64,000 nucleotides of DNA from Oscillospiraceae bacterium (GCA_022770625.1 JALEHK010000022.1:23800-87799); one strand, 5' to 3'; counted from the first letter of the stretch, positions 21,952 through 39,489 are shown. Numbers and translations are program-made. Notes: a model not told the origin generated them from the sequence alone.

Positions 21952-21978
21952 GAATGTGTTCTCCTTCTTATGTAAACG

Positions 21979-22956
21979 TTATTTGGACATCTTTTCCCAG
22001 AAAGCGACGGCTTCCGAAAGCCATCCTTCCGCAGGTGTTCCTTCGGCAACGCCGAGCCCGTGACCGCCCTTTTCGTAGAGGTGGAGCTGATTCGGGACAC
22101 CGGCCGCCGTCAGCTTTTCCGCCATTTCGATCGCCGCCGTATAGTTGACCAGCGGATCGTCCTTGCAGTGCCAGATATAGGAAGCAGGATAAGAAGCGGT
22201 GATGTTGTCGAGCGTGTTGACGGCGCGCACCTTTTCAGGCGTCACGTCCGGCCCGATCATCGTTTCGAGGAAACGGTTTCTCTGTCCGTTTTCGGGCATC
22301 ACGACCTTGCTTGCGCCGTAGCAGACAAACAATGCGGCCGGTTTCGGAAGGCCGAAATGAGCATATCCGAGATTCTCGGTGCCCCAACTTGCCGTCAGGC
22401 TTCCGCCCGCCGAAAAGCCCGCGACCGCATAGTTCTCCGTCGAAACTTTACATTCATCCGCGTGCGCAAAAACAAACCGGAGCGCCGCCGAGAGGTCTTC
22501 CTGAGGTTTCGGGAAGAGAGGGGATTCGTTGACGCGGTAGCTTAAAACGAAAGCGTTGTAGCCCATCTGATTGAGCCGCATAGCCGTCGGATATCCTTCG
22601 AGGAAGGAGCAGACGGTTGCAAATCCGCCGCCCGCGATAACCATGACAAAGGGCGCACCGGGTTTTCCGGGCATATAGACCAGCTTGGTGTTTTCCTTGT
22701 CGGGGTCTTTGGCTTTCTCTTCGTCTGTCCAGATATCAAAGGCGACCTGTACGCCGCTGTTGATGATTCCGCGCAGGTATTCTAGGCCTTCGATCACGAC
22801 CGGGCTATGCATCGTAAAGCCTTCCGGGTCAAGTCCGGGATTGACCGGGTCATCCTTGGGGTCGATGTTGGTGAACATAATAAAAGGGGCGATCTCCTTG
22901 AATTCGGGGATCTGACGGACTTCCCGAAGGGTCGTTTCCGAGGTGATCGTAGACAT
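21979..22956 (-). CDS. alpha/beta hydrolase (esterase)
   Basis: GFSAGG nucleophile elbow, VIAGGGF oxyanion region, and a C-terminal GGHGLG. I prefer the start at 22956 (GGGAGGA upstream) over the 23016 start of the ORF track. Confidence 0.75.
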   Translation of the reverse strand: MSTITSETTLREVRQIPEFKEIAPFIMFTNIDPKDDPVNPGLDPEGFTMHSPVVIEGLEYLRGIINSGVQVAFDIWTDEEKAKDPDKENTKLVYMPGKPGAPFVMVIAGGGFATVCSFLEGYPTAMRLNQMGYNAFVLSYRVNESPLFPKPQEDLSAALRFVFAHADECKVSTENYAVAGFSAGGSLTASWGTENLGYAHFGLPKPAALFVCYGASKVVMPENGQRNRFLETMIGPDVTPEKVRAVNTLDNITASYPASYIWHCKDDPLVNYTAAIEMAEKLTAAGVPNQLHLYEKGGHGLGVAEGTPAEGWLSEAVAFWEKMSK

Positions 22957-23181
22957 TTGCTTCATCCTCCCTTGTAATGGTAAGTTACTTAAAAAGCAGA
23001 ATTTTCTTTTATTCATATTATATTTACAGCTGGTTTATATGTCAATTTCTCAGAGCTGGTTTCGCAGAATAAGACAAAAAGTGCGCAGAAAAGGAAAATA
23101 TGAGCTGTTTTTTATTTGACTGATTGAACAAAATACACTTGGCAATGTTGACTATTCGACTTAATAAGTTATCTGGCCGTT

Positions 23182-24915: not shown

Positions 24916-25017
24916 ATGCCTGTTTACCATTATGAAAAAGCTCTTCTGAATCGAATGTGTTGTCAGTGTACGACGGGGATCCGAAAATCGCCGCCTGTTT
25001 TGCCGCGCCTGCACTGA
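24916..25017 (+). CDS. candidate 33-aa small ORF (MPVYHYEKALLNRMCCQCTTGIRKSPPVLPRLH); may instead be part of a structured sRNA
   Basis: ATG lies 9 nt after GAAGGAGG. The unit has its own promoter and terminator. Third-codon positions are less G/C-biased than in neighbouring genes, so coding status is doubtful. Confidence 0.2.
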   Translation: MPVYHYEKALLNRMCCQCTTGIRKSPPVLPRLH

Positions 25018-25091
25018 TTAGACACTTGAGCGGCAAAATGATCTTTCCGGCCGGTAAATCCGTGCCGAGGGACAAAAGGAATTGTGATTTT

Positions 25092-25123
25092 CGGAAGCCT
25101 GTGAAAATGGGCTTCCTTTTTTG
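25092..25123 (+). terminator. Rho-independent terminator of the orphan unit
   Basis: GGAAGCC (25093-25099) pairs with GGCTTCC (25110-25116); TTTTTT follows. Confidence 0.7.
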
Positions 25124-25351: not shown

Positions 25352-25380
25352 TTGACATTCTGTTTCTAAAGCGCTATAAT
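25352..25380 (+). promoter_or_regulatory. consensus sigma-70 promoter of the C26/peptide-transport operon
   Basis: TTGACA at 25352-25357, exact 17-bp spacer, TATAAT at 25375-25380. Confidence 0.8.
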
Positions 25381-25386
25381 GCATAT

Positions 25387-25645
25387 AACGCAAGAAGATC
25401 AGAAAAAGACTTCATAAACGAAAGTCAAAGAATCGATTATGAAAGTCTGATTCGTAAATCTTTCTTACTGTGTACAAACAACCAACAATTGTACGCTTGG
25501 AAAATACAGTTGCCGCAAGGGTGGGGCAGAGAACGACCGTCGGGTTTTCCGAGGTTTCTCTGCCTCTTTTGTTTAGAAAAAAGCACCGTAGACCATACGG
25601 AAAGGTTTTGGGGGATATATTCTGGTAAGGAAAGAGGAATCCGAT
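25387..25645 (+). promoter_or_regulatory. unclassified 5' leader of roughly 260 nt with an intrinsic terminator (attenuator or riboswitch candidate)
   Basis: Stems GTACAA..TTGTAC. Terminator GGCAGAGAA (25525-25533) / TTCTCTGCC (25556-25564) with TCTTTTGTTT. A T-box-like AAGGGTGG overlaps the 5' arm of the terminator. The first gene starts about 70 nt further on. Confidence 0.55.
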
Positions 25646-26314
25646 ATGAAAACAGGGCTTCATCCAAAAGTTTTAATTGTAACCGAAGACGGGTTTGATC
25701 CGACGTTCGGAAGCGCTAATCTCGTGCTCAGCAGAGCGTACAGCGACGCAGTTTCTTCCGCCGGCGGCATTCCGATCACGGCGATGGACATCAGAACCTG
25801 CTCCGAATATCTGGAATTTGCGGACGCGCTTTTACTCACCGGCGGTGGAAATATACATCCTTCACGGTATAAAGGTCTGGTCAGCGATATGTCCGATCTT
25901 CAGGGCTTCTCCAATACCCGCGACGATATGGACTTCACCCTCGCTGATCTTTTTGTCAAGGCGGGGAAACCGGTTCTCGGAGTCGGAAGAGGCGCGATGG
26001 TTTTAAACGCTCTCCTCGGCGGCAACGTCAATAAACACCTTCCTGAACTTTCCGCTCATGCTTCCGATCCGCTGACCGGCGGGCTGAAAGAAATCCTTGG
26101 CGAACGCGTTTCCTTTAAGCGGGTATACGGCTGGGGAATTAAGACTCTTGCTGAATCCCTTTCAGCAGAAGCCGTTTCGGAAGAGGGCGTGATCGACGGG
26201 TTCTCCCATCAAACGCTTCCCGTAAAAGGCGTTGTCTGGCATCCCGAACGGGAACTGGACGGAAATCCGATCGACCTTCGGCTCTACCGTTGGCTGGTCA
26301 ACAGTGTGAAGTGA
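25646..26314 (+). CDS. peptidase C26 / class-I GATase-like protein, type A copy 1 (nucleophile Cys replaced by Gly)
   Basis: GKPVLGVGRGAMVLNALLGG aligns with the canonical GKPvLGICRGmQ; Gly codon GGA at 25985-25987 occupies the Cys position. VVWHPE (His-Glu) is retained. Confidence 0.8.
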   Translation: MKTGLHPKVLIVTEDGFDPTFGSANLVLSRAYSDAVSSAGGIPITAMDIRTCSEYLEFADALLLTGGGNIHPSRYKGLVSDMSDLQGFSNTRDDMDFTLADLFVKAGKPVLGVGRGAMVLNALLGGNVNKHLPELSAHASDPLTGGLKEILGERVSFKRVYGWGIKTLAESLSAEAVSEEGVIDGFSHQTLPVKGVVWHPERELDGNPIDLRLYRWLVNSVK

Positions 26315-26330
26315 AAGGGAGGGCGCGTAT

Positions 26331-27035
26331 ATGAAACCGATCATTGCATTAAACGGCGGTTCGGCACTCGACCGTCAGTTCCATTCCAAGGCTACCGTCG
26401 CCAATAAAACCTATTCGGCAGCTGTTGCGGCGGCGGGTGGCGTTCCCATTCTGGTGACCGACCCCGATTCGATCAAAAGCTACGCGGAGATCGCGGACGG
26501 CCTGATCCTGACGGGAAGCCTTTTCTTCAACCCCGATCCCGAACGGCGAAGCGAGGTTTCCAAGGCGGAAAGCGGTGAGCGGCCGGTGTATGACGCGGCG
26601 CTGTTGGACGCTTTTGTCAAAGCCGGAAAACCGGTTTTCGGTATTTGTCTCGGCCTTCAGTGTATCAACCTCTATTTCGGCGGAACGCTTGCGGACGGAT
26701 TTAAATTCAAAGACGGTGTGGAGCATATGATGTGCGCCCACAATTGTCTGGCCGGTGAAGATTCGGTCGTCGGAAAGATCTTCGGAAGCGAGTTCATGAT
26801 TAACTCCCGTCACAACCGAAAGATCGATACGCTGGCGCCGGGACTGAAAGCGGTCGCGTTTTCACCCGATGGCGTAATCGAAGAGGTACAGCATGAATCG
26901 CTTCCGGTCTGGGCGGTCGAATGGCATCCCGAACGGATGCGCGGCGACCACCGCGAACCGCCGGAAGGCCCGGATACAACGCCGCTCTTCCAGTGGTTCT
27001 GCGGCGTCTGCAAAGAAATGAGCGGGAAAGAGTAA
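26331..27035 (+). CDS. peptidase C26 / class-I GATase-like hydrolase, type B copy 1 (catalytic Cys present)
   Basis: GKPVFGICLGLQCINLYFGG (Cys codon 26646-26648), INSRH and VEWHPE. It starts 16 nt after A1. Confidence 0.8.
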   Translation: MKPIIALNGGSALDRQFHSKATVANKTYSAAVAAAGGVPILVTDPDSIKSYAEIADGLILTGSLFFNPDPERRSEVSKAESGERPVYDAALLDAFVKAGKPVFGICLGLQCINLYFGGTLADGFKFKDGVEHMMCAHNCLAGEDSVVGKIFGSEFMINSRHNRKIDTLAPGLKAVAFSPDGVIEEVQHESLPVWAVEWHPERMRGDHREPPEGPDTTPLFQWFCGVCKEMSGKE

Positions 27036-27104
27036 GAAAGCATAGCTCAATAACCTCCGGGAAAAAAAGAGAGAAAGAATCCCGGATTCAACGAGGGGGC
27101 TTTT

Positions 27105-27773
27105 ATGATGAAACCAAGAATCCTGATTGCGGCGGAGGACAGTTTTGATCCGAACACCGGAAACGGAAACATCGTCCTTTGCAAAGAGTACAGCGACGCG
27201 GTTTATCACGCCGGCGGGACGCCGCTTGTGGCGCTCGACATCCGGACGGCGAAGGAATACGCCGATGTGACCGACGCCCTTCTCCTGATCGGCGGGCCGG
27301 TCATCCATCCCGCCAAATACGGTTCGGTCGTCCGGGATTTTTCCTATCTCGGCGGCTTCTCCGGAACCCGCGACAATATGGATTTTGCTCTCGCAAAGCT
27401 CTTCCTCGCACAGGGAAAGCCGATCCTAGGAATTGGGCGGGGCGCGATGGTCGTCAACGTCCTGACCGGCGGAACGGTTAATGAATCGATCGGAGAAAAG
27501 GGTGCGGAGACGGAAGATACCCTTTCGGGACAGATGGAAAAGCTCCTTGGAAAAACGATCACCTTTAAGCGCAGCTACGGCTGGGGAATCGGACGTCTCG
27601 GTGAAGGAATGCAGCCGGAAGCGGTCGCTCCGGACGGAACGGTCGATGCCATCGTACATAAAGAGAAGCCGGTGTGGGGCGTTGTATGGCACCCCGAACA
27701 TCCGGACGATGGCGCTGCTCCCGATAACCGGCTGTACGAGATGTTTGTTTCGGCAGCCGCATCGGCAGACTGA
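27105..27773 (+). CDS. peptidase C26 / class-I GATase-like protein, type A copy 2 (nucleophile Cys replaced by Gly)
   Basis: GKPILGIGRGAMVVNVLTGG with Gly codon 27435-27437 at the nucleophile position. VVWHPE is retained. Same length as A1 (222 aa) and collinear with it. Confidence 0.8.
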   Translation: MMKPRILIAAEDSFDPNTGNGNIVLCKEYSDAVYHAGGTPLVALDIRTAKEYADVTDALLLIGGPVIHPAKYGSVVRDFSYLGGFSGTRDNMDFALAKLFLAQGKPILGIGRGAMVVNVLTGGTVNESIGEKGAETEDTLSGQMEKLLGKTITFKRSYGWGIGRLGEGMQPEAVAPDGTVDAIVHKEKPVWGVVWHPEHPDDGAAPDNRLYEMFVSAAASAD

Positions 27774-27792
27774 ACGGGAGGGGAAAACAGGA

Positions 27793-28497
27793 ATGAAACC
27801 GATCATTGCGATAAACGGCGCTTCGGCGTTTGACCGTCAGTTTTTCACCAAAGGGAAGGTTGCTTTTAAGGCTTACCCGCAGGCAGTCGCCGCGGCAGGC
27901 GGCGTTCCGCTGATGGTTCCCTCGATCCATTCGGTCGATGAGTACGCATGGCTCGCGGACGGCCTGCTCCTGACCGGAAGCCTTTCGTTTGCTCCGGCTC
28001 CCGCCTATACGCCGCTCGTCAATAAAATGGAGGAAAAAGAACGGCCCATCTTCGATTCGGCTCTGGTTCTCGCCTTTGCAAAGGCCAAAAAACCGATCAT
28101 GGGCGTCTGTCTCGGTCTTCAGTGTATCAACCTTACCTTCGGCGGAACACTGAAAAACCACTTCAAACTGGAAGATGGCGTCGAACATATGCTGACCGCG
28201 CACCCTTGTATCGCCGGTACGGAATCGATCGCGGGGAAGCTGTTCGGAAAAGAATTTATCATCAATTCCCGCCATGAACGAAGGATCGATACCTTGGCTC
28301 CGGGACTTGAAGCGACCGCGTGGTCGCCCGACGGAGTCATCGAAGAGATCAAACACGAGTCGCTTCCGATCTGGGCGTTTGAATGGCACCCCGAACGGAT
28401 GCGGGGAGATGACCGGGATCCGCCGGAAGGCCCGGATACAACGCCGCTCTTTGAGTGGTTTGTGAATACCTGCGCAGCCGTCAGAGACGCTGAGTAA
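27793..28497 (+). CDS. peptidase C26 / class-I GATase-like hydrolase, type B copy 2 (catalytic Cys present)
   Basis: KKPIMGVCLGLQCINLTFGG (Cys codon 28108-28110), INSRH and FEWHPE. 234 aa, gap-free collinear with B1. Start ATG 27793 follows GGGAGGGG; the ORF-track extension to 27481 overlaps A2. Confidence 0.8.
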   Translation: MKPIIAINGASAFDRQFFTKGKVAFKAYPQAVAAAGGVPLMVPSIHSVDEYAWLADGLLLTGSLSFAPAPAYTPLVNKMEEKERPIFDSALVLAFAKAKKPIMGVCLGLQCINLTFGGTLKNHFKLEDGVEHMLTAHPCIAGTESIAGKLFGKEFIINSRHERRIDTLAPGLEATAWSPDGVIEEIKHESLPIWAFEWHPERMRGDDRDPPEGPDTTPLFEWFVNTCAAVRDAE

Positions 28498-28532
28498 GTA
28501 CAGAGAAGTCTTTGCGTAAAGGAGGCTCATTG

Positions 28533-29516
28533 ATGGAACTGGAAGAAAGAAAGGTTCTGCTTGAGACCAGAGAACTGAAAAAATACTTTTACAATAAAAG
28601 CGGACTGAAAGTCAAGAGCGTTGTAAAAGCGGTCGATAATGTTGATCTGACCATCCATGAAGGAGAAACTGTAGGGCTTGTCGGAGAATCCGGATGCGGA
28701 AAATCCACCTTCGGACGGGCGATCCTGCGGCTTCAGGAACCGACCGACGGACAGATCTTCTATCGGGGCAAGCAGATCCAGCGGCTTCCGTTTAAGGAGA
28801 TGCGCCCTTATCGGAAAGAGATGCAGGTCATCTTTCAGGACCCGGCGGCCTCTTTGAATCCCCGCAAAACGATCATGCAGTCGATCCGGATCCCGCTGGA
28901 AGTCAACCACATCGGCACCAAAGCCGAACAGCAGGAGCGGGCGGAAGCGATGCTCAGCTATGTAGAACTCAACCCGAGCAACTGGTACAAATTCCCGCAT
29001 GAGATGTCCGGCGGCCAGAAACAGCGCGCGATGATCGCACGGGCGCTGATCACCCACCCGTCTTTTATCGTGGGTGACGAACCGGTTTCGGCTCTGGACG
29101 TTTCGATTCAGGCGCAGGTCTTAAACCTGATGAAGAAGATCCAGCAGGAGGAACAGCTTTCCTACCTCTTTATCTCCCATGACCTTTCGGTCGTCCGCTT
29201 TCTCTGCGATAAGGTCGCGGTCATGTACCTTGGAAAGATTATCGAGATCGGCACCAAAAAGGAGATTTTCGATACTCCCCTTCATCCTTACACAAAGGCG
29301 CTGATGAGTGCGATCCCGATTCCCGATGTTCATGTACATACCAAGCGGATCGTCCTGGAAGGGGATGTACCAAGCCCGATGAATCCTCCTTCCGGATGCC
29401 GGTTCAGAACCCGCTGTCCGTATGCAAACGCCCACTGCGCCGAGGTTGAACCGACGCTTGACCTCATCAGCGGCGAGCATAAGGTCGCCTGTACAAGGCT
29501 TTCGGAAATCGGATAA
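28533..29516 (+). CDS. oligopeptide/dipeptide ABC transporter ATPase (OppF/DppF-like)
   Basis: [24 protein letters not shown], and a C-terminal Cys motif [15 protein letters not shown]...HKVAC. RBS AAAGGAGG. Confidence 0.9.
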
Positions 29517-29635
29517 AAAGGAAAATGCGCTTAAACGCCGGACAATCGGTTCGGCTGAAAATAGGAGAGAACTTATCGATCACTGAAGGATTTTTCCTCA
29601 GTCGTCCATTTATCTAAAGAAAGAAGCGATTGAAA

Positions 29636-31318
29636 ATGAAGGCAGTTCAGTTCACGTCCATTCTCTCCACCCTTGCAATCGTCATGGCCATGCTCGCCGG
29701 ATGCGGCGGCAGCACCTCTTCCGCTTCCTCTGCTGCAAGCGGAAGTCCTTCTGAAGGGACTTCGGGAAGTTCCTCTGAAAGCTCTTCCGAATCGGCGGAC
29801 GGCGAGACTGCGGCTTCTTCCGACAGCATCGTGACCGTCGCCTACACCACCGCGTGGGATTCGCTCATGCCCTATAACTCCTCTTCCGGTTCGATGTACA
29901 CGATGGAGGTCGTCGATAAAATCTACGACCGTCTGGCCTACGCCGAGATCGGCGCAAGCGCTTTCCAGCCCAGAGCGGCTTCTTCGTGGGAATCGGCGGA
30001 CGACAATATGTCGATCATTTTCCACCTCGATGAAAACGCGACATGGTCGGACGGCGAACCGGTTACGGCGGCCGACTGGATCTACACCTTTACCCTCATC
30101 AGCGATCCGAACTTTACCGGAACTTCCCGCGGCCCGATGAAAAATATTGCCGGTACCGATGACACCGGCACAGCGGTCGAAGGCGAGGAACTCGGCGTGG
30201 AAGCGCTGGATGACTACACCTTAAAAATCCACCTCAAGGTTGCTTCTTCTCCCGAAGACTGGCTGCTCGCCAACAACCGCGCGACCGTTGTTCTTCCGGA
30301 ACACTGCCTGAAAGACATCCCGCTGGACAGCATCCTGACCGACGAGTTCTGGACGAATCCCGTCGGAAGCGGCCCACTTCAATTCGAGAGTGAAGTTATT
30401 GGTTCCGAACTGGTGCTTGCTTCCCGGCCGGAATATCAACTCGGCGCACCCGGCTTCGGCAAGATGGTCTGTACCGTCATGGATTCCTCCAACACGATGA
30501 ATGCGATTATCGCCGGCGATATTGATATGGTCTGCCTCGGAAACTCCGTTTCGACCAGCAACGTCGAACTGGCTGAGTCCTCCGGCCTGACCGTTAAGCA
30601 GAACGACCTTCCGACTTCCTTTACCGAGATGATCATCAACAACACCAACATCACCGACGCAAAACTTCGTCAGGCGCTCTGGTACGCGCTCGATATCGAT
30701 ACGATCACCTCCCTCATGACCGACGGCTACGGCATCCCCGCCTATACCTACATCATGCCCGGAAGCGAATACGAAAACACCGACTCCGCCGCTCATTACG
30801 ATCCCGATTACGCCCGTCAGCTGCTTGAAGAATCCAGCTACAACGGCGAAACCTATACGATCGCCTGCGGCTCCTCCCGTGAAGCGCTCGTATCGCTGAT
30901 CCAGCAGTATTTTGACGATATCGGCTTCAATATGGAGATCGCTCTGGTTGACGTCGCGACGATGTTCGCCGGATGCCAGGACGGCACCTACGACTTCGGT
31001 GTTTCCGGCCATACCGCGACCGCAAGCCCCGTCTGGTTCGATAACGCGACCAGTTTTCACATCATCGGCGGCACCTCTTATTTCCAGGTCACCGATCCGA
31101 CCTACACCGAGATGTTCGAGAAGATCAACTCGCTCTTTGACGAGACCGAAAAGATCGAGGCCACTAAGGAATATCAGGCGTATATCGCCGAACAGACCCC
31201 CTTTATTCCGCTCTGGTTCCAGGCAGGTCTTTATATCGAAAGCGATACCGTTTCCGGCGTTGATTACGGCGCCGCCGGTATGTGCAACGATAACGTCTGG
31301 GATTGGGTCAAGGAATAA
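29636..31318 (+). CDS. peptide ABC transporter substrate-binding lipoprotein, family 5 (copy 1)
   Basis: Lipobox LAGCGGS, a Ser-rich linker, and a family-5 SBP body of about 500 aa. Confidence 0.9.
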   Translation: MKAVQFTSILSTLAIVMAMLAGCGGSTSSASSAASGSPSEGTSGSSSESSSESADGETAASSDSIVTVAYTTAWDSLMPYNSSSGSMYTMEVVDKIYDRLAYAEIGASAFQPRAASSWESADDNMSIIFHLDENATWSDGEPVTAADWIYTFTLISDPNFTGTSRGPMKNIAGTDDTGTAVEGEELGVEALDDYTLKIHLKVASSPEDWLLANNRATVVLPEHCLKDIPLDSILTDEFWTNPVGSGPLQFESEVIGSELVLASRPEYQLGAPGFGKMVCTVMDSSNTMNAIIAGDIDMVCLGNSVSTSNVELAESSGLTVKQNDLPTSFTEMIINNTNITDAKLRQALWYALDIDTITSLMTDGYGIPAYTYIMPGSEYENTDSAAHYDPDYARQLLEESSYNGETYTIACGSSREALVSLIQQYFDDIGFNMEIALVDVATMFAGCQDGTYDFGVSGHTATASPVWFDNATSFHIIGGTSYFQVTDPTYTEMFEKINSLFDETEKIEATKEYQAYIAEQTPFIPLWFQAGLYIESDTVSGVDYGAAGMCNDNVWDWVKE

Positions 31319-31482
31319 CCGCTTTCCTAATTGAAAAAGACCGGAGTGGGAAACTCTCTCCACTCCGGAATATGCAGAGATTCTCCGCAGGAGGGGGATA
31401 TTTGCACCTACTGCCGTTCGGGTATCAGAAGGACTGAGCTTTGAAGAACGGCAGAATACCATAAAGAAAGAAGCGCTTAAAA

Positions 31483-33165
31483 ATGAAGGCAGTCAAAATC
31501 ACATCCGTACTTTCCACGATCGTTATCCTCGCGTCGATGATGGCAAGCTGCGGCGGTTCCGGAAGCACCGCCTCCACCTCTTCCGAAAGCTCCGTTTCCG
31601 GTGAATCGTCTGCTGCATCCTCTTCCGCTGAAAGCAGCGCGGAAGCAGCAACCGGTTCTTCCGACAGCGTTGTAACCGTTGCTTACACCACCGCGTGGGA
31701 TTCTCTAATGCCTTATAACTCTTCCTCCGGTTCGATGTACAACCTTGAGGTGCTGGGCAATATCTACGACCGTCTGGCCTACAGCAAGCTCAACGGCGAT
31801 GAATTTACTCCCAGAGGCGCTTCTTCCTGGGAATCGGCCGACGACAATCAGGCAATCGTTTTCCACCTCGATGAAAACGCGACCTGGTCGGATGGCGAAC
31901 CGGTCACCGCTTCTGACTGGGTTTATACCCTGAAGCTGGTCAGCGATCCCTCCTTTACCGGTACCTCCAGAAGCTGCGCCAAGACCATCGCCGGGACCGA
32001 TGACAACGGCGTAGCGATCGATGGCGAGACCTTCGGCGCCGAAGCGGTCGATGATTATACCTTAAAACTCACCCTGAAGACCGCCGCAACTCCCGAGGAC
32101 TGGCTGCTGGCAAATAACCGCAACTTCTTCGTCCTCCCCGAGCATTGCCTGACCGATTACACCGCCGCCGACGTTATCAACGCCGACTTCTGGACGGCTC
32201 CGGTCGGAAGCGGCCCGCTTAAATTTGAGAGCGAGGTCATCGGTTCCGAGTTGGTTCTCGATGCCCGTCCTGAGTATCAGCTCGGCGCTCCCGGCTTTGG
32301 TAAGATGGTCTGCACCGTCATGGATTCTTCCAACACGATGAACGCGATCATCGCCGGCGATATCGATCTGGTCTGCATCGGCAACCGTGTCTTGACCAGC
32401 AACATCGAGCTTGCTGAAGCTTCCGGTCTGGAGGTCAAGCAGTTCGATCAGGCGACCCAGTTCAACGAGCTGTTGATCAACAACTCCAACATCACCGATT
32501 ACCGGATTCGCGAAGCGCTCTGGTACGCGCTGGATAAGGACACCATCACTTCGGTCATGACCGACGGCTACGGCGTACCGGTCGATACCTACATCGTCCC
32601 CGGCAACCAGTTTGAAAACACCGACATCGATATGCCTTACGATCCCGAGAAGGCGAAAGAGCTGCTTGCTGAGGCGGGCTACAACGGCGAGACCTATACG
32701 ATGGCGTGCGGTTCCTCCCGTGAGCCGCTGGCTTCTCTCTTACAGCAGTATTACGATGCGATCGGCTTCAACATGGACATCGCGTTGGTTGACGTCGCAA
32801 CCATGTTCTCCGGCTTGAAGGACGGTACCTATGACATCGGCGTTTCCGGTCACTCGGCGACCGCAAGCCCCGTCTGGTTCTGCAACGCGACCAGTTTCCA
32901 GGTGCTCGCCGGTGAAGGGAGCTCCAGCTACGCGGTAACCGATCCGAAGTTTGGAGAGTATTTTGACCAGATCAACTCGATCTTTACGACCGAGGAACGC
33001 CTTCCGGTCGTCAAAGAGTTCCAGGCTTATATCGCCGAGCAGGTTCCCTTTATCCCGCTCTGGTACACCGCTGACCACTACATCGAATCCACCACCGTTT
33101 CCGGTGTCGATTACGGCGGATCCTGGATGTGCAATGATAACGTCTGGGATTGGGTCAAAGAGTAA
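31483..33165 (+). CDS. peptide ABC transporter substrate-binding lipoprotein, family 5 (copy 2, paralogue of 29636-31318)
   Basis: Lipobox MASCGGSGS. 560 aa, collinear with copy 1 and sharing long identical blocks (VVTVAYTTAWDSLMPYNSSSGSMY, RPEYQLGAPGFGKMVCTVMDSSNTMNAIIAGDID). Confidence 0.9.
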   Translation: MKAVKITSVLSTIVILASMMASCGGSGSTASTSSESSVSGESSAASSSAESSAEAATGSSDSVVTVAYTTAWDSLMPYNSSSGSMYNLEVLGNIYDRLAYSKLNGDEFTPRGASSWESADDNQAIVFHLDENATWSDGEPVTASDWVYTLKLVSDPSFTGTSRSCAKTIAGTDDNGVAIDGETFGAEAVDDYTLKLTLKTAATPEDWLLANNRNFFVLPEHCLTDYTAADVINADFWTAPVGSGPLKFESEVIGSELVLDARPEYQLGAPGFGKMVCTVMDSSNTMNAIIAGDIDLVCIGNRVLTSNIELAEASGLEVKQFDQATQFNELLINNSNITDYRIREALWYALDKDTITSVMTDGYGVPVDTYIVPGNQFENTDIDMPYDPEKAKELLAEAGYNGETYTMACGSSREPLASLLQQYYDAIGFNMDIALVDVATMFSGLKDGTYDIGVSGHSATASPVWFCNATSFQVLAGEGSSSYAVTDPKFGEYFDQINSIFTTEERLPVVKEFQAYIAEQVPFIPLWYTADHYIESTTVSGVDYGGSWMCNDNVWDWVKE

Positions 33166-33319
33166 AGATAAACCCTCAGCTTCTCTTCCGGCAGGTTCAT
33201 TCCTGCCGGAGCTGCCCCGGAAATCGGGGCAATATGCCTTTTATTTTCCGCATGAGGAAGGTAGCGGCAACAGTACACTTCGCGGTTTTATGAAGCGCCG
33301 CTGAAAGGGATGGTTAAAG

Positions 33320-34273
33320 ATGCTTAAATACTTGGGTAAGCGAATCCTGACTGCAATTCCGATCTTTTTCGGGATCACGGTTATCATCTATGTGATGCTG
33401 AATATGGCGCCCGGAAGCGCTCTGGATATGCTCGCTTCGAGTGAAATTTCCGTTGACAGCGCCGCTTACGATCAGCTCAAAGCCCAGCTCGGCCTTGATA
33501 AACCGGTCTGGATGCGTTATCTGCTCTGGCTCAAAGACCTGTTCCAGCTGAACTTCGGTACCTCCTACCGTACCAGTCAGGACGTATGGACGATGGTCTC
33601 CCAGAGAATCGGCCCCTCAATCCTCCTTTCGGGCACCGGCGTTATCCTCGCGATCCTCCTCGCGCTCCCGATCGGCATCATGGCTGCCTATAAGCCCTAC
33701 TCCAAATGGGACAGCGTATCTTCCTTCTTTGCCCTGATCGGCTCGACCCTTCCCGGCTTCCTGCTGAGCCTTCTGCTCATCTACGTTTTCTCGATCAAAT
33801 TAAAGCTCCTCCCGACCTCCGGTATGCATTCTTCGGGCGATACGAGCTTTATCGACCTTTTCCGACACCTGCTCTTACCGGCGCTGATTATCTGCATCGG
33901 CTCGATGGGCAACCTCATCAAACAGACCCGAAGCGCATGTCTGGAAGTCCTTCATGAGGATTTCGTAAAGACCGCCCGCTCCAAGGGCATCAAGGAACAG
34001 GCCGTTGTCCTTAAGCACGTTTTCAGAAACGCCCTGATCCCGGTTTCAACGACCATTCTTCTTCAGATCCCCCACATCATCGGCGGTACAACGATCGTTG
34101 AGCAGATCTTCGGCTGGCCGGGACTCGGCTCTCTGATGATCAGCTCGATCAATAACCGCGACTATCCGGTTGTCATGTGCGTAGCCGTTATCATCGCGAT
34201 CACCGTCCTCGTGACCAATATCCTGATCGATATCGTCTACGGCTTCCTTGACCCGCGCGTCAGCTATGACTGA
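33320..34273 (+). CDS. peptide ABC transporter permease (OppB/DppB-like)
   Basis: 317 aa, N-terminus MLKYLGKRILTAIP, and the EAA-loop region DFVKTARSKGIKE. Confidence 0.9.
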   Translation: MLKYLGKRILTAIPIFFGITVIIYVMLNMAPGSALDMLASSEISVDSAAYDQLKAQLGLDKPVWMRYLLWLKDLFQLNFGTSYRTSQDVWTMVSQRIGPSILLSGTGVILAILLALPIGIMAAYKPYSKWDSVSSFFALIGSTLPGFLLSLLLIYVFSIKLKLLPTSGMHSSGDTSFIDLFRHLLLPALIICIGSMGNLIKQTRSACLEVLHEDFVKTARSKGIKEQAVVLKHVFRNALIPVSTTILLQIPHIIGGTTIVEQIFGWPGLGSLMISSINNRDYPVVMCVAVIIAITVLVTNILIDIVYGFLDPRVSYD

Positions 34274-34301
34274 TTCTGATTCTGAAAGAAGGGAAATTCT
34301 T

Positions 34302-35189
34302 ATGGAAATGACAGCGAAATCCGTATCCGCGCCCAAAAAGAAAGAAAGTCAGGCGCTGAAAAGCTTCCGCAAAAATAAAAGAGCCATGTTCGGCGCGATC
34401 TTTATCATCATCGAAACGCTGCTCGTGATTCTGCTCCCGATCATCCTTCATACTGATCCCAATACATCCGACCTACTCTCCGGAAAATATGCATCTCCTT
34501 CGGCGGCTCACTGGCTGGGCACCGACTCGATTGGACGCGACCTCTTCGCCCGTCTGCTTTCGGGCGGCAAGGTATCGCTGTTGGTCGGCTTGAGTTCTCC
34601 TCTGATCAGCGTTGCGATCGGTCTTCCGCTCGGCCTTCTCGCCGGCTACTACCGCGGTGTGATCGAAACGATCGTCATGCGTCTGGCGGACATCTTCATG
34701 TCCTTCCCGAGCATGATCCTGATCCTCTGCCTGGTCGCGGTCGTCGGCCCGTCGATCACCACCATCATCGTCGTTATCGGCGTCATGGGCTGGACCCAGA
34801 TTGCAAAGCTCGTCTACGGAAACGTTGTTTCCATCCGCAGCAAGGAATACATCGAATCGGCGCGCGCGGCCGGATGCAGCGACGCCTATATCATCTTCCG
34901 TGAGATCCTTCCCAACGCCATCAGCCCGGTATGGGTTCTGCTTTCCTTCCGCGTCGGCGGCGCGATCATGACCGAATCCGGTCTGTCCTTCCTCGGCGTC
35001 GGTATTCAGGCTCCGCAGGCTTCTTGGGGCAATATCATCAACGCTGCGACCGACCTTTCCGTTTTAATGCTCCGTCCGTGGGTATGGATGCCGGCAGGTG
35101 TGCTGATCGTTATGACGGTCGTTTCCTTTAACTTTATCGGTGAAGGTATCCGCGACGCTCTTGACCCCAAAATGAAACGTGTAGACTGA
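34302..35189 (+). CDS. peptide ABC transporter permease (OppC/DppC-like)
   Basis: HWLGTDSIGRDLFARL motif and EYIESARAAGCSD EAA loop. I prefer the start at 34302 (after AGAAGGGA). Confidence 0.9.
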   Translation: MEMTAKSVSAPKKKESQALKSFRKNKRAMFGAIFIIIETLLVILLPIILHTDPNTSDLLSGKYASPSAAHWLGTDSIGRDLFARLLSGGKVSLLVGLSSPLISVAIGLPLGLLAGYYRGVIETIVMRLADIFMSFPSMILILCLVAVVGPSITTIIVVIGVMGWTQIAKLVYGNVVSIRSKEYIESARAAGCSDAYIIFREILPNAISPVWVLLSFRVGGAIMTESGLSFLGVGIQAPQASWGNIINAATDLSVLMLRPWVWMPAGVLIVMTVVSFNFIGEGIRDALDPKMKRVD

Positions 35190-35219
35190 TTCATGGAAAA
35201 ATCCAAGGAGGAACCGAAC

Positions 35220-36188
35220 ATGGCAGAAAACCTGCTTGAAGTAAAAGACCTTGAGGTTGATTTCCGGGTCGGTGACGGAAAGGTTGTCACCGCCATCAAA
35301 GACGTTAACTTCTCCCTGATTAAAGGACATACCCTCGGCATCGTCGGCGAGTCCGGCTGCGGCAAATCGGTCACGGCCAACACCATCATGAAGCTCCTTC
35401 CCAAAGAGTCCGGCATCATCGCCGGCGGACAGATCCTCTTTGACGGAAAGGACATCGTTCCGATGAGCGATGAGGAGATGCGAAATATCCGCGGCAAACA
35501 TATCGGCATGATTTTTCAGGAACCGATGACCTCATTAAACCCCGTTTACCGGATCGAGACGCAGATGACCGAAATGCTTTTGGCGCACGAAAAGCTGACT
35601 AAAAAAGAAGCGCATGAGCGTTGTCTGGAAATGCTCAAGGCGGTCGGCATCCCCGAACCGGAACGCCGCCTTCGGGAGTATCCCCACCAGCTTTCCGGCG
35701 GTATGCGCCAGAGAATTATGATCGCGATGGTTTTGTCGGTCAAGCCCGAGCTGATTATTGCCGATGAGCCGACGACCGCTCTGGACGTTACGATTCAGGC
35801 GCAGATCATGGAGCTGATGGGCAAGCTCAAAGAAGAGATGGGAACCTCGATCATCCTGATTACCCACGATATGGGCGTTATCGCCGACATCGCCGATGAC
35901 GTCATGGTTATGTACGGCGGAAACGTTGTCGAACAGGCGCCGGTAGCCGACATCTTTGAGCATCCCCTCCATCCCTATACTCAGGGGCTTCTCGCCTCGA
36001 TTCCGCGTATGGATATGGACGTTGAGACGCTCGCCGCGATCGAAGGAACCGTTCCGTCGCTTGCGGAAATGCCGACCGGCTGTCATTTCTCGACCCGCTG
36101 CCCCTACTGCACCGAAAAGTGCCGCAGTGAAAACCCCGCGATGGTCGATCAGGGCGGTCATAAAGTTGCCTGCTGGAAATATGAATAA
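35220..36188 (+). CDS. oligopeptide/dipeptide ABC transporter ATPase (OppD/DppD-like)
   Basis: [28 protein letters not shown], and a C-terminal GCHFSTRCPYCTEKC...HKVAC. Start 35220 follows AAGGAGGAA. Confidence 0.9.
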   Translation: MAENLLEVKDLEVDFRVGDGKVVTAIKDVNFSLIKGHTLGIVGESGCGKSVTANTIMKLLPKESGIIAGGQILFDGKDIVPMSDEEMRNIRGKHIGMIFQEPMTSLNPVYRIETQMTEMLLAHEKLTKKEAHERCLEMLKAVGIPEPERRLREYPHQLSGGMRQRIMIAMVLSVKPELIIADEPTTALDVTIQAQIMELMGKLKEEMGTSIILITHDMGVIADIADDVMVMYGGNVVEQAPVADIFEHPLHPYTQGLLASIPRMDMDVETLAAIEGTVPSLAEMPTGCHFSTRCPYCTEKCRSENPAMVDQGGHKVACWKYE

Positions 36189-36191
36189 AAT

Positions 36192-36240
36192 GAAAAGCCC
36201 GATGGCGGACAGGATCTGCCCCGGGCTTTTCATTTCTTTC
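36192..36240 (+). terminator. terminator-like hairpin between the transporter genes and the dipeptidase gene
   Basis: Perfect 10-bp stem GAAAAGCCCG (36192-36201) / CGGGCTTTTC (36222-36231) with a 20-nt loop and a T-rich tail. It may be partial, allowing read-through. Confidence 0.55.
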
Positions 36241-36290
36241 AAACAGGCGTATAATAAAGACAGATAAACATCCGGAAAGGAAGGACTTTT

Positions 36291-37286
36291 ATGAGTAAAG
36301 CGATCCCCTATATCGATATGCACTGCGACACCCTGATGCACGGCGTCGGAAAAAAAGCGGAGGACATCTTCTCGATGCCCGATGCGATGGTCGATCTGGA
36401 ACGCCTTTCAAAAGCGGGCGTCTATGCCCAGTTTTTCGCCGTCTTTTTCCCGCCGAAGGAAGGAATGGAGAAGTCCCTCGGGATCACCGATGACGACGCA
36501 TATTTTTCCGCCGCACATACCCTTCTGAAGAACACGATTTCCCGCCACGGCGACCTTCTCGCTTTCGCTGGAAACGCCGTGGACGCCGAGAAAAACCATG
36601 CGCAGGGAAAGGTTTCCGCCTTCCTGACGATGGAGGACGGCCGCGCGGTTCAGGGAAGCTTTGACCGTCTGCGCTATTTTTACAATCAGGGCGTGCGGCT
36701 GATCTCGCTGACCTGGAACTTTGAAAACTGCTTCGGCGCGCCCAACTCGAAGGATCCCGCCATGATGAATAAAGGGCTGACCGCCTTCGGTAAGGAAGCG
36801 GTCGGAGCAATGAATGAGATGGGAATCATCGTCGACGTCTCCCACCTTTCGGACGGCGGCTTCTGGGACGTTGTCAACCTGACCCGTAAGCCCTTTGTCG
36901 CTTCTCATTCCAACTGTCGCGCGCTGACGCCCCATACCCGGAACCTGACTGATGAGATGATCCGCGCACTCGCGGAAAAAGGCGGAGTAGCGGGTCTTAA
37001 TTTTGCACCCGAATTCCTTTGGACAGAAGCCGACGCAGCCGCAGGCAGCAAAATCAGCCGGATCGAGCGGATGTGCGCCCACCTGTCTCATCTGATTGAC
37101 GTTGGCGGTGAAGACTGCGCGGCAATCGGAACCGACTTTGACGGCATCAGCGGCGAGCTGGAGGTCGGAACGCCGACTGAGATGGGAAAACTGTTCGAGG
37201 CGCTGAGTCGTCACGGATTTTCGGATCGCCTGATTGAGAAAATCGCATATCAGAATACCCTGCGCGTCATTCGGGAAACGATGTAA
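36291..37286 (+). CDS. membrane-dipeptidase family (M19, renal-dipeptidase-like) dipeptidase
   Basis: N-terminal IDMHCDTL, and LISLTWNFEN, IVDVSHLSD, ASHSNCRAL and IGTDFDG segments typical of M19. Confidence 0.85.
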   Translation: MSKAIPYIDMHCDTLMHGVGKKAEDIFSMPDAMVDLERLSKAGVYAQFFAVFFPPKEGMEKSLGITDDDAYFSAAHTLLKNTISRHGDLLAFAGNAVDAEKNHAQGKVSAFLTMEDGRAVQGSFDRLRYFYNQGVRLISLTWNFENCFGAPNSKDPAMMNKGLTAFGKEAVGAMNEMGIIVDVSHLSDGGFWDVVNLTRKPFVASHSNCRALTPHTRNLTDEMIRALAEKGGVAGLNFAPEFLWTEADAAAGSKISRIERMCAHLSHLIDVGGEDCAAIGTDFDGISGELEVGTPTEMGKLFEALSRHGFSDRLIEKIAYQNTLRVIRETM

Positions 37287-37353: not shown

Positions 37354-38007
37354 TTAATATTTAACGATCCAGTTTTCTCCGGTGATTCCGGCGAACGCGC
37401 CGTTTTCCAGAAGTTCCTTGCAGTCCTCATGCGCCAAAAGCCACTTGTTGTTGGCGGTCAGACGGCTGTCCTCATGCTCCTTGGTAAGTGCCGTGTTGGT
37501 TCCCTTGGGCAGGCAGACCAGGCATTTAAAGCCTTTGTCGCTCACCTGGCAGGGGCAGTAGTGAAGGGTCGTGCCGTAGACTTCGATCGCTTCGCCGGGA
37601 TTTAAGACAAATGCCTTGACCTTATCTGCATCCAGCTTCCCGTCCTCCAGATCGAAGAGCGTCGCCAGTAAAAGAACCAGCGGTTCGCCGACCGCGAGGT
37701 TGATCTCGCTGCCCTGATGCCATTCGAGGGCGTTCATCTGAGAGTTATACCCCCAGCAGCAGCCCGCCTGAGAAGGCATCTCGCCGTAGAGAACGCGGGA
37801 GACTTCAGCGGCCGAAGGACAGGCTTCGAGCGAAGGGATCGACGGCTCATAGGCGCTCTTCCCGGCTTCCGGCATCGGAAGCGCCGCGACTGCCTCTCCG
37901 AGATCGGAAAGATCCATTTTCACGACCCGTCCGTAGGCCTTGAATTCGGGATCGTTTACCGAATAAAAGGAAAGACCGGGATTTTTTTCTTTCAGTGCTT
38001 CAAACAT
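37354..38007 (-). CDS. hypothetical protein, cupin/ureidoglycolate-lyase-like fold (possibly DUF4867)
   Basis: 217 aa from ATG 38007 (GCAGGAGG 9 nt upstream). The family assignment is from memory only. Confidence 0.5.
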   Translation of the reverse strand: MFEALKEKNPGLSFYSVNDPEFKAYGRVVKMDLSDLGEAVAALPMPEAGKSAYEPSIPSLEACPSAAEVSRVLYGEMPSQAGCCWGYNSQMNALEWHQGSEINLAVGEPLVLLLATLFDLEDGKLDADKVKAFVLNPGEAIEVYGTTLHYCPCQVSDKGFKCLVCLPKGTNTALTKEHEDSRLTANNKWLLAHEDCKELLENGAFAGITGENWIVKY

Positions 38008-38171
38008 AGGTGATAACCTCCTGCTGATAATCCGTTTTCCGTGCTCCTGCACGGTCTACCCCTATTATACTCCCGTATCCGCTGAATTGCAAGAAAAGAG
38101 TTTATTGATCGAGTGGAACACGGAAGAAACGCTTTCTGATCATAAAGGAATTGCCGTCCGTCTGGTTTATT

Positions 38172-38206
38172 AAAAAAATACCCCCGTATGTTTGACCATA
38201 CGGGGG
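38172..38206 (-). terminator. Rho-independent terminator of the oadB/oadG-like operon
   Basis: CCCCCGTATG / CATACGGGGG stem; on the minus strand a T-run follows (plus-strand A-run 38172-38178). Confidence 0.85.
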
Positions 38207-38220
38207 ATTGCTGTACCGCT

Positions 38221-38346
38221 TTATTTCTTATTGCCCGCTTTGTTGAGAACCGTAATCACGATAGCGATGATCGCCATTACGATGAAAACGCCGAGCATAC
38301 CCTTCCCCAGAACGGAAAGGCTTTGTGCAAACAGAGAAACGTTCAT
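38221..38346 (-). CDS. OadG-like small membrane subunit (41 aa), not in the ORF track
   Basis: MNVSLFAQSLSVLGKGMLGVFIVMAIIAIVITVLNKAGNKK: a single TM helix and RBS AAAGGAG 8 nt upstream. It starts 24 nt downstream of oadB. Resembles the decarboxylase gamma/OadG family. Confidence 0.6.
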   Translation of the reverse strand: MNVSLFAQSLSVLGKGMLGVFIVMAIIAIVITVLNKAGNKK

Positions 38347-38370
38347 GAATGGATCTCCTTTCTGTTACCG

Positions 38371-39489
38371 TTAGCGTGCGATGAGGTTGAGGATCATGCC
38401 GCCCGCGATGACACTTGCAATCTGACCGCCGACATTGACGCCCGCCGCCTGCATCAGCAGGTAGTTCGCGTTGTCCTCTTTGATGGCCATCTTGCTGATA
38501 ACACGGCTGCTCATCGGGAAGGCCGAGATGCCGCAGGCACCGATCATCGGGTTGACCTTCTTGCCTTCGGGAAGGAAGATGTTGAGGATCTTGGCGAAGA
38601 GAACGCCTCCGAAGGTGTCAAAGACAAAGGCCAGAAGTCCGAGTGCGAGGATAAGGAGCGTCTGGGGATTGAGGAACTGCTCTGCCTGCATCTGACATGC
38701 GACCGTAAGACCGAGGAAAATCGTGATGAGGTTTGCGAGAACGTTTTGCGCCGTCTGGGAGAGAGAGTCGAGTACGCCGCATTCCCGCAGAAGGTTGCCG
38801 AACATCAGGAATCCGACCAGTGCGACCGATCTGGGAACGATCAGACCCGCGATCAGCGTAACGATGACCGGGAAGAGGATCCGGGTCGTCTTGGAAACGT
38901 TGGAAGCGGAATACTTCATGTGGATCGTCCGCTCTTTCTTGGTGGTGATGGCCTTGATGACCGGGGGCTGAATGATCGGAACGAGCGCCATGTAGCTGTA
39001 CGCCGCGACAAGGATCGCGCCGGTGTACTGGCTGTCAAAATACTGGCTGACAAAGATCGCGGTCGGACCGTCAGCAGCGCCGATGACGCCGATCGAAGCC
39101 GCGTCCTGGATGCTGAACCCGAAAAGACATGCGAGACTCATGACCGCGAAAACGCCGAGCTGCGCCGCCGCACCGAAGATCAGAAGATACGGGCTTTGAA
39201 GCAGCGGCCCGAAGTCGATCATCGCACCGATGCCGATAAAGAGCAGCAGCGGGAAAAGCTCGTTCGCGATACCCGCGTCATACAAAACGTTTAAGACGCC
39301 GACCTCGCTTCCCTGTGTAATTGCGCCGGAGGAGGGGAGGTTGACGAGAATCGCACCGAACCCCATCGGAAGAAGAAGTCCCGGCTCCATATCCTTCTTG
39401 ATCGCAAGATAGATCAGGATGCCGCCGACAATCCACATGATGACCTGCTTATAGTTGAGAAGCAGGAAATTTCCGAAGATTTCTTCCAT
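38371..39489 (-). CDS. sodium ion-translocating decarboxylase, beta subunit (OadB/GcdB/MmdB family)
   Basis: 372-aa polytopic protein with ...LYLAIKKDMEPGLLLPMGFGAILVNLP... and ...GAADGPTAIF... segments characteristic of the family. I prefer ATG 39489. Confidence 0.9.
   Translation of the reverse strand: MEEIFGNFLLLNYKQVIMWIVGGILIYLAIKKDMEPGLLLPMGFGAILVNLPSSGAITQGSEVGVLNVLYDAGIANELFPLLLFIGIGAMIDFGPLLQSPYLLIFGAAAQLGVFAVMSLACLFGFSIQDAASIGVIGAADGPTAIFVSQYFDSQYTGAILVAAYSYMALVPIIQPPVIKAITTKKERTIHMKYSASNVSKTTRILFPVIVTLIAGLIVPRSVALVGFLMFGNLLRECGVLDSLSQTAQNVLANLITIFLGLTVACQMQAEQFLNPQTLLILALGLLAFVFDTFGGVLFAKILNIFLPEGKKVNPMIGACGISAFPMSSRVISKMAIKEDNANYLLMQAAGVNVGGQIASVIAGGMILNLIAR

Follow-up and report, generated by a model that had tools for sequence, protein, structure and literature searches.

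In the gut, glutathione (GSH) and related γ-glutamyl peptides serve as major stores of organic sulfur, and many of the resident anaerobes rely on sulfur in reduced form. Known routes of GSH degradation run through Ggt, through ChaC or, in fungi, through the DUG pathway. Here we describe a computational analysis of an operon in a 64,000-nucleotide stretch of DNA from an Oscillospiraceae bacterium (GCA_022770625.1 JALEHK010000022.1:23800-87799; the whole stretch is called the window, and positions are counted from its first nucleotide). The operon encodes two pairs of peptidase family C26 proteins (A1–B1 and A2–B2) together with an Opp/Dpp-type peptide importer. We judge the chance to be about even that this locus imports and breaks down cysteine (Cys)-containing γ-glutamyl peptides when cysteine or sulfur becomes limiting, a substrate assignment drawn from regulation and gene neighbourhood.

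That an importer coupled to cytosolic γ-glutamyl cleavage can supply sulfur is already known. The nearest operon-level precedent is GisABCD-Ggt of Staphylococcus aureus, in which an ATP-binding cassette (ABC) importer of the peptide/nickel family is combined with cytoplasmic removal of γ-Glu from GSH and oxidized glutathione (GSSG) to provide nutrient sulfur (PMC10355420). The likeness drawn is at the level of the operon, and there are differences: the S. aureus system cleaves with a γ-glutamyl transpeptidase, which is an N-terminal nucleophile (Ntn) hydrolase, whereas the window encodes a C26 pair with the class I glutamine amidotransferase (GATase) fold, and the two systems also differ in gene order, in the number of substrate-binding proteins (SBPs) and in regulation. 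On the import side, the Ctp/OppDF system of Listeria monocytogenes shares with the window a family-5 lipoprotein SBP, Opp-type permeases and D/F ATPases, and its SBP, CtaP (Lmo0135), is the binding protein of an importer that takes up GSH and GSSG with high affinity (bioRxiv 10.1101/2023.10.16.562582). The Ctp operon, however, lacks both C26 genes and dedicated ATPases, and the match of CtaP to the SBPs studied here is limited to about 148 bits, 20 bits above the next match.

Within family C26, the cytosolic Arabidopsis enzyme GGP1 carries a Cys-His-Glu triad and splits GSH by hydrolysis into Glu and Cys-Gly, the activity that we propose for B (PMC9804317, PMC12958103). Unlike the proteins of the window, GGP1 is described as a single polypeptide without a dead partner, and its distance from B keeps it out of the solved-structure matches. 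The nearest solved relatives of B are Lin1909, SpuA and PuuD (E 4e-26 to 4e-11), which share its fold and triad, although the characterized members act on γ-glutamyl-amines and are encoded with neither a Cys-less paralogue nor an Opp-type importer. The yeast DUG system (Dug2–Dug3 plus Dug1, where Dug2 is a WD40-M20 protein) also joins a cytosolic, GSH-degrading GATase-type subunit to a non-equivalent partner and then uses an M20 Cys-Gly dipeptidase, which parallels an A:B complex acting with an M20 enzyme. However, Dug3 is a class II (Ntn) amidotransferase (PMC12653102). The DUG families bear no relation to the class I C26 fold, and thus the resemblance is one of analogy rather than homology.

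Regulation through Cys codons also has precedent. In mycobacteria, polycysteine short open reading frames (ORFs) act as attenuators that respond to Cys (bioRxiv 10.1101/834739), and ahead of cysS in Rhodobacterales an upstream ORF with Cys codons (uORFC-8-2), followed by a terminator, has been proposed (PMC8632094). As would be the case for the leaders described below, a short ORF with Cys codons lies before cysteine-supply genes and ribosome pausing is the sensor. The mycobacterial ORFs, which are leaderless, regulate translation by exposing a ribosome-binding site, whereas the poly-Cys ORFs of the window and of other Clostridia have a Shine-Dalgarno sequence and are followed by intrinsic terminators.

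A predicted pseudoenzyme–enzyme pair of family C26

Eleven consecutive plus-strand genes, delimited by ORF mapping and domain scans, span positions 25646–37286 in the order A1-B1-A2-B2, OppF-like ATPase, two family-5 SBPs, two permeases, OppD-like ATPase, a hairpin and an M19 dipeptidase. Their products match MCI6022899-909 of Candidatus Faecivivens sp., a gut metagenome-assembled genome (MAG), exactly. The consensus promoter, leader and eleven same-strand genes described in an earlier reading of this DNA (the original prediction) were all recovered at or near the places where it had put them, with several gene starts now placed later than the start of the longest ORF (OppF-like ATPase, 28533; SBP1, 29636; second permease, 34302; and a divergent M20D gene, approximately 24694).

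All four C26 proteins exceed the 20.5-bit cutoff of Pfam PF07722 (Peptidase_C26): A1 (25646–26314) scores 98.7 bits, B1 (26331–27035) 128.8 bits, A2 (27105–27773) 103.5 bits and B2 (27793–28497) 120.5 bits. A2 is 52% identical to A1. When the four are aligned, the nucleophile position is Gly in A1 and A2 (G-[IV]-G-R-G; GVGRGAM in A1) and Cys in B1 and B2 (GICLGLQ). Both B proteins carry the complete Cys-His-Glu triad (GICLG plus WHPE), and A1 keeps the WHPE element (H-x-E). The C26 triad has been described as completely conserved (PMC12958103). Every A-type relative, down to 35% identity, likewise has Gly instead of Cys at the nucleophile site, and the His-Glu pair is degenerate as well in the A proteins of two related loci, L079 and L080.

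The A gene lies directly 5′ of the B gene in 13 lineages, mostly with a 4-nucleotide overlap; a more distant B-like protein (39% identity) in locus L086 has no A partner. An exhaustive HMMER search with an A profile over 1.84 billion representatives yielded approximately 35 Cys-less A clusters, and the best matches include natural fusions in the order A-B (P0191, P0192 and P0194), in the order B-A (P0193) and as truncated A followed by B (P0195, P0197 and P0198). Some of the fusions in the series P0191–P0198 retain just the N-terminal 130 or so residues of A. Scans of genome_contigs and of JGI metagenome contigs with an A profile gave two and one true A relatives, respectively, the remaining matches being generic C26 proteins of about 30% identity.

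Because A and B are fused in both orders, and because partial A domains are also found fused to B, the two probably constitute one physical unit in which B is catalytic and A is not. Gene order and these natural fusions therefore identify A as a predicted non-catalytic, Cys-less pseudoenzyme partner of B. A single-sequence AlphaFold2 model of the A-B fusion P0191 was of low confidence (mean predicted local distance difference test score of 30). Present annotation calls A and B merely members of the ‘gamma-glutamyl-gamma-aminobutyrate hydrolase family’, and the NCBIfam PuuD model scores B at 46 bits against a cutoff of 266. In the literature searched we found no description of a C26 pseudoenzyme:enzyme pair of the A:B kind or of its fusion forms.

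Conserved association with a peptide importer

The genes downstream of B2 encode a complete set of Opp/Dpp (PepT-type) parts. An OppF/DppF-like ATPase (28533–29516; ABC_tran and oligo_HPY) is followed by the lipoproteins SBP1 (29636–31318; SBP_bac_5, 200 bits; lipobox LAGC) and SBP2 (31483–33165; SBP_bac_5; lipobox MASC), which are 68% identical. These are followed by an OppB/DppB-like permease (33320–34273; BPD_transp_1 and BPD_transp_1_N), an OppC/DppC-like permease (34302–35189; BPD_transp_1 and OppC_N; start set from orthologues of 295 amino acids) and an OppD-like ATPase (35193–36188; ABC_tran and oligo_HPY). The NCBIfam OppF and DppF models score the first ATPase at 393 and 386 bits, both under cutoff. 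No NCBIfam equivalog for the named importers OppA, DppA, GsiB, NikA and Opp4A exceeds its cutoff with the SBPs, the best being Opp4A at 170–176 bits compared with 650.

The block A-B-F-SBP-permease-permease-D occurs in the window and in L001, L003, L078, L080 (Lacrimispora indolis), L084 and L085, and L079 has the order SBP-A-B-F-permease-permease-D. The transporter block thus adjoins A-B in at least eight lineages. The original prediction had asked whether the C26 pairs travel with the importer and had named a lack of conserved co-localization as grounds for abandoning the idea; the co-localization is conserved. Its remark that the gene order departs from canonical A-B-C-D-F also holds, and more widely: the order is F-A-A-B-C-D here, the OppF-like gene opens the transporter block in every related locus, and F-first/D-last is kept in all of them. 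The SBPs of these loci are orthologous (42–79% identity, with many invariant positions), from which it follows that the module had the F-first/D-last order ancestrally. A further suggestion, that the two SBPs correspond to the two A-B modules, did not survive comparison. L001 combines two SBPs with a single A-B pair, and L003 carries a single copy of both, which indicates that the two duplications were independent.

A profile built from nine orthologous SBPs and searched against solved structures ranks Lmo0135/CtaP first at 148 bits, with the next match at 128 bits. Generic peptide binders score 110–128 bits, HbpA proteins (HbpA being the glutathione-binding GbpA) 115–119 bits, and YliB/GsiB 83 bits.

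Cysteine-codon leaders upstream of the operon

The 0.9-kb region between the M20D gene and A1 is conserved and contains two tandem promoter–leader–terminator units on the plus strand. Unit 1, of which the promoter, the Cys-rich short ORF and the terminator were all missing from the original prediction, begins with promoter P1 (24827–24855; TTGACA-17-TATCAT with an extended −10 TG, 11/12 matches). The ORF that follows, MPVYHYEKALLNRMCCQCTTGIRKSPPVLPRLH (24916–25017), is a candidate cysteine-sensing leader peptide of 33 codons with an AGGAGG Shine-Dalgarno sequence 9 nucleotides upstream; it contains MCCQC, with Cys codons at 24958–24969. The intrinsic terminator T1 (25093–25122) has a stem of GGAAGCC...GGCTTCC followed by six T nucleotides (folding free energy ΔG −15.9, z −4.4).

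P1 is kept in L001 and L003, T1 is conserved in L001, L003 and L077, and the combination of a Cys-run leader ORF and a terminator is common to all three and the window. In the orthologous leaders of L001 and L077 the corresponding stretch is MCCCC, and in that of the divergent L003 it is MCKMCRMC. Such ORFs are rare: at least four Cys within six residues were found in 13 of 6,844 short ORFs in 1.07 Mb of collected sequence, and five of the 13 are these leaders.

A separate poly-Cys leader precedes the orthologous operon of L. indolis (L080; AZUI01000001). The sole strong promoter upstream of the A-B-Opp operon there, a 12/12 match, drives a 39-codon poly-Cys ORF, MKNTMVSTRNNHSASFEKMDCCCCKTVCICMNTACFCMY, which is followed by a terminator (L080 8695–8725). 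This leader, MDCCCCKTVCICMNTACFCMY (MDCCCC...), is not homologous to that of the window. Two features of an attenuator are present: a Shine-Dalgarno-preceded short ORF with a Cys run in the window, L001, L077, L003 and L080, and a downstream terminator in the window and L080. Behind the L. indolis leader, a DUF2292 gene is matched by the NCBIfam model for OscA, a sulfur starvation protein, with a score under the cutoff (E 3e-8), and the operon is then followed by a cystine-like SBP_bac_3 transporter. We found nothing informative in the literature on DUF2292/YezD.

Other neighbourhoods also contain genes related to sulfur. The L084 operon lies amid an SsuA-family binding protein, cystine-like binding proteins and a nitrogenase-like pair, and a Cys/Met pyridoxal phosphate enzyme is encoded near the stand-alone A-B pair of L007. 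Taking these neighbours together with the leaders, we regard the link to cysteine as a well-supported inference, with attenuation as the mechanism that the leaders suggest. Poly-Cys leader attenuators in Clostridia are not described in the literature that we searched.

Two further observations concern these neighbourhoods. A second, near-identical poly-Cys leader, MKKTMVTARTNHFSNIEKMDCCCCKTVCMYMNTAYFCMY, occurs in L. indolis at L080 20146–20265, where a further DUF2292/OscA-like gene and a radical SAM gene come after it. This arrangement suggests that Cys controls a small regulon, or else that the ORF encodes a Cys-rich peptide with a role of its own. At L084 3535–6300 and 14210–17555, a same-strand cluster carries two Oxidored_nitro genes, amino-acid ABC components, Fe-ADH, a HisC-like aminotransferase and the SsuA-family protein, and looks like an organosulfur salvage island.

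Unit 2 lies between the Cys leader and A1. Its promoter, P2 (25352–25380; TTGACA-17-TATAAT), agrees with the sigma-70 consensus at all 12 positions and is kept in five loci. The 265-nucleotide leader 2 (25381–25645) contains a terminator-like hairpin, T2 (25523–25566; ΔG −30.6, z −3.4), that is retained in the consensus fold of five loci. It also contains the motif GCCGCRANGRYGRGGCAGA (25512–25530), which abuts or overlaps the 5′ arm of T2, is invariant in five loci of the lineage and, in a search of all collected loci, was found solely upstream of A genes of this lineage. The motif may be an undescribed cis-regulatory element. Leader 2 has no convincing upstream ORF and no Rfam match, and an Rfam 15 scan revealed no riboswitch, T-box or leader model for either leader (E ≤ 1 for the window; gathering threshold for seven related loci). 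The idea that the P1 read-through region pairs with T2 was dropped when inspection by eye gave just weak, non-conserved matches.

Leaders of other kinds were seen elsewhere. The stand-alone A-B pair of L007, from rumen MAG RUG010, is preceded by its own leader of approximately 420 nucleotides, which combines a consensus-like promoter with a strong terminator (9551–9808); we found no poly-Cys ORF and no Rfam match in it. Upstream of the A-B-Opp-M20 genes of L085 is a short leader of a different kind, in which a consensus-like promoter precedes a hairpin with a T-run by no more than about 50 nucleotides (9283–9370).

Operon boundary and accessory peptidases

The terminator that follows the OppD-like gene closes the conserved operon. 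The hairpin near 36.2 kb that was originally read as possibly a partial terminator is present (36188–36235; 48 nucleotides plus a T-tract, ΔG −32.9, z −3.9), but it has the form of a full intrinsic terminator and is followed by a promoter-like site (36227–36255; TTTTCA-17-TATAAT, 10/12). The M19 dipeptidase gene (36291–37286; Pfam Peptidase_M19, 296.5 bits), previously counted as an operon member, lies behind both elements, which makes it an adjacent gene that is probably transcribed separately. No M19 gene was found downstream of OppD in L001, L003, L079, L080, L084 or L085, and M19 is probably a lineage-specific neighbour with its own transcription unit.

The conserved accessory peptidase is instead the divergent M20D amidohydrolase/dipeptidase-like gene (23231 to approximately 24694, minus strand; NCBIfam TIGR01891, 253 bits, above cutoff). 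Its divergent position beside A-B is kept in L001/L002 and L003/L004 with 81–87% identity. The gene had been noted before as AbgB-like, with a possible folate link. The gene itself stands, whereas that affiliation was dropped as the best description: the nearest solved relatives are HmrA and the PM20D2 Xaa-Arg dipeptidase (E ~1e-37), far closer than the AbgB structure (E 2e-12), and nothing that we found supports a link to folate.

The dipeptidase-like neighbour varies among loci: the window, L001 and L003 have the divergent M20D, L085 has a downstream M20 that is not orthologous to the M20 of the window (BLASTP E 0.01), and L080 has an Amidohydro_1 ‘Xaa-Pro dipeptidase’-like protein. This variation is consistent with a pathway that needs a dipeptidase step but no particular dipeptidase family.

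The surroundings of the peptidase genes hold several other ORFs. Downstream of M20D and on the same strand are genes for a DUF3502-containing protein and a BD-FAE/alpha-beta hydrolase (20347–23016, minus strand); the arrangement is syntenic with L001 and not with L003, and it therefore probably reflects relatedness rather than function. A convergent DUF4867 gene (37354–38052, minus strand) lies directly after M19, and a 368-residue ORF with no Pfam match (38188–39294, plus strand) comes next.

Proposed pathway and competing explanations

In the pathway that we propose, scarcity of Cys-tRNA would stall ribosomes on the run of Cys codons in the leader, so that transcription would pass the leader terminator into the operon. 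The two lipoprotein SBPs would hand the peptide to the Opp/Dpp translocator formed by the two permeases and the F and D ATPases, components that are assigned by family and whose ligand is predicted. In the cytoplasm, a heteromeric C26 enzyme would remove the γ-glutamyl group, with B supplying the triad and the Cys-less A acting as an obligate partner. The leftover dipeptide, for example Cys-Gly, would then be split by a neighbouring metallodipeptidase, either the divergent M20D or, in this genome only, M19.

The likely substrates are GSH, GSSG and γ-Glu-Cys-type peptides. Among the candidates listed in the original prediction, the glutathione-like option is favoured because poly-Cys leaders occur in two unrelated lineages, because the neighbours are of the sulfur-starvation type and because CtaP is the top solved relative of the SBPs. 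The folate, poly-γ-glutamate and muropeptide options are possible substrates to which neither regulation nor context lends support.

Several observations weigh against this proposal. Between the Cys leader and A1 stands another strong promoter, accompanied by a terminator of its own and a conserved motif, and control by Cys in this genome is therefore indirect at best. On folding the leaders of the window, L001, L003, L077 and L080 we saw alternative pairings but no clear, mutually exclusive anti-terminator. Ten nucleotides inside the window leader ORF (24980–24989) are complementary to 25086–25095, which overlaps the 5′ arm of T1, but this helix overlaps T1 by just 3 nucleotides and coexists with it in one fold. 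The poly-Cys ORF is missing from several A-B-Opp loci (L079 and L085), and functional Cys-rich peptides could be what the poly-Cys ORFs encode, the second L. indolis copy being located ahead of a radical SAM gene. With respect to the ligand, similarity of the SBPs to CtaP is modest, OppA/DppA-type proteins score nearly equally, the GsiB equivalog model gives 46–47 bits against a cutoff of 594, and the substrate is assigned from regulation and neighbourhood. Finally, A-B occurs without an adjacent transporter in five lineages (L007, L008, L081, L082 and L083).

Among the other explanations, the one that fares best, although we think it unlikely, is that the operon serves general carbon and nitrogen acquisition from γ-glutamyl or isopeptide compounds (γ-Glu dipeptides, poly-γ-glutamate fragments or folylpolyglutamate), and that the Cys-rich ORFs are incidental or have another role. 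It would accommodate the two loci that lack a poly-Cys leader, and P2/leader 2 may carry a different sensor; furthermore, family C26 includes folyl-γ-glutamyl hydrolase and PuuD/SpuA-type enzymes, and the relatives of M20D include AbgB. It does not account for two unrelated poly-Cys leaders upstream of orthologous operons or for the sulfur-salvage neighbours in L080 and L084, and no folate or pteridine genes are present in any context examined.

The transporter could also be an ordinary oligopeptide or dipeptide importer that scavenges Cys-containing α-peptides, while A:B acts on an endogenous γ-glutamyl compound. The ATPases and permeases do look like generic Opp/Dpp parts, and the five lineages with unaccompanied A-B pairs fit such a division of labour. 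Nevertheless, the tight conserved order, in which A-B precedes the transporter block or lies within it in at least eight lineages with orthologous SBPs, makes this arrangement quite improbable in our view.

Recycling of muropeptides would involve import of L-Ala-γ-D-Glu-meso-diaminopimelate (mDAP), cleavage of the γ-D-Glu-mDAP bond by A:B and splitting of L-Ala-D-Glu by M19. Dipeptides of the form L-Xaa-D-Xaa are the preferred substrates of bacterial M19 enzymes such as Sco3058, the window has an M19 gene next to the operon, and family-5 SBPs include MppA. However, MppA ranks far below CtaP in the SBP profile search (87 bits), M19 is missing from the related loci and lies behind a terminator in the window, no cell-wall recycling genes are nearby, and the Cys leaders and sulfur neighbours would go unexplained. 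We therefore give this route little credence. Least credible of all is the possibility that A:B serves a biosynthetic enzyme as its glutamine amidotransferase or glutaminase module: B does match Pfam GATase at 64 bits and the TrpG, PabA and GuaA models weakly, but its C26 scores are about twice the GATase scores, its partner is a dead paralogue rather than a synthase, and the lack of any synthase partner or subunit in the 13 A-B neighbourhoods examined argues against such an enzyme.

Implications

If the preferred explanation is correct, namely import and breakdown of Cys-containing γ-glutamyl peptides under cysteine or sulfur limitation, a C26-based two-subunit enzyme tied to its own importer would represent a new route of GSH degradation, and a conserved pseudoenzyme–enzyme pair would gain a function. 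We advance more tentatively the broader proposal that strict clostridial anaerobes possess an undescribed system in which a cytosolic, GSH-degrading C26 enzyme, present with its Cys-less partner as an obligate heteromer or a fusion, is combined with a dedicated CtaP-like Opp importer and with a polycysteine-attenuator ‘Cys ribulon’ like the mycobacterial one.

The predictions are directly testable in L. indolis, a cultured species that carries the operon in a 6.38-Mb genome sequence. If borne out, the poly-Cys leaders would add Clostridia to the groups, Actinobacteria and alpha-proteobacteria, in which cysteine is sensed through ribosome pausing, and the operon could point to an as yet unrecognized step by which cysteine is released from imported GSH in Gram-positive bacteria that lack Ggt.

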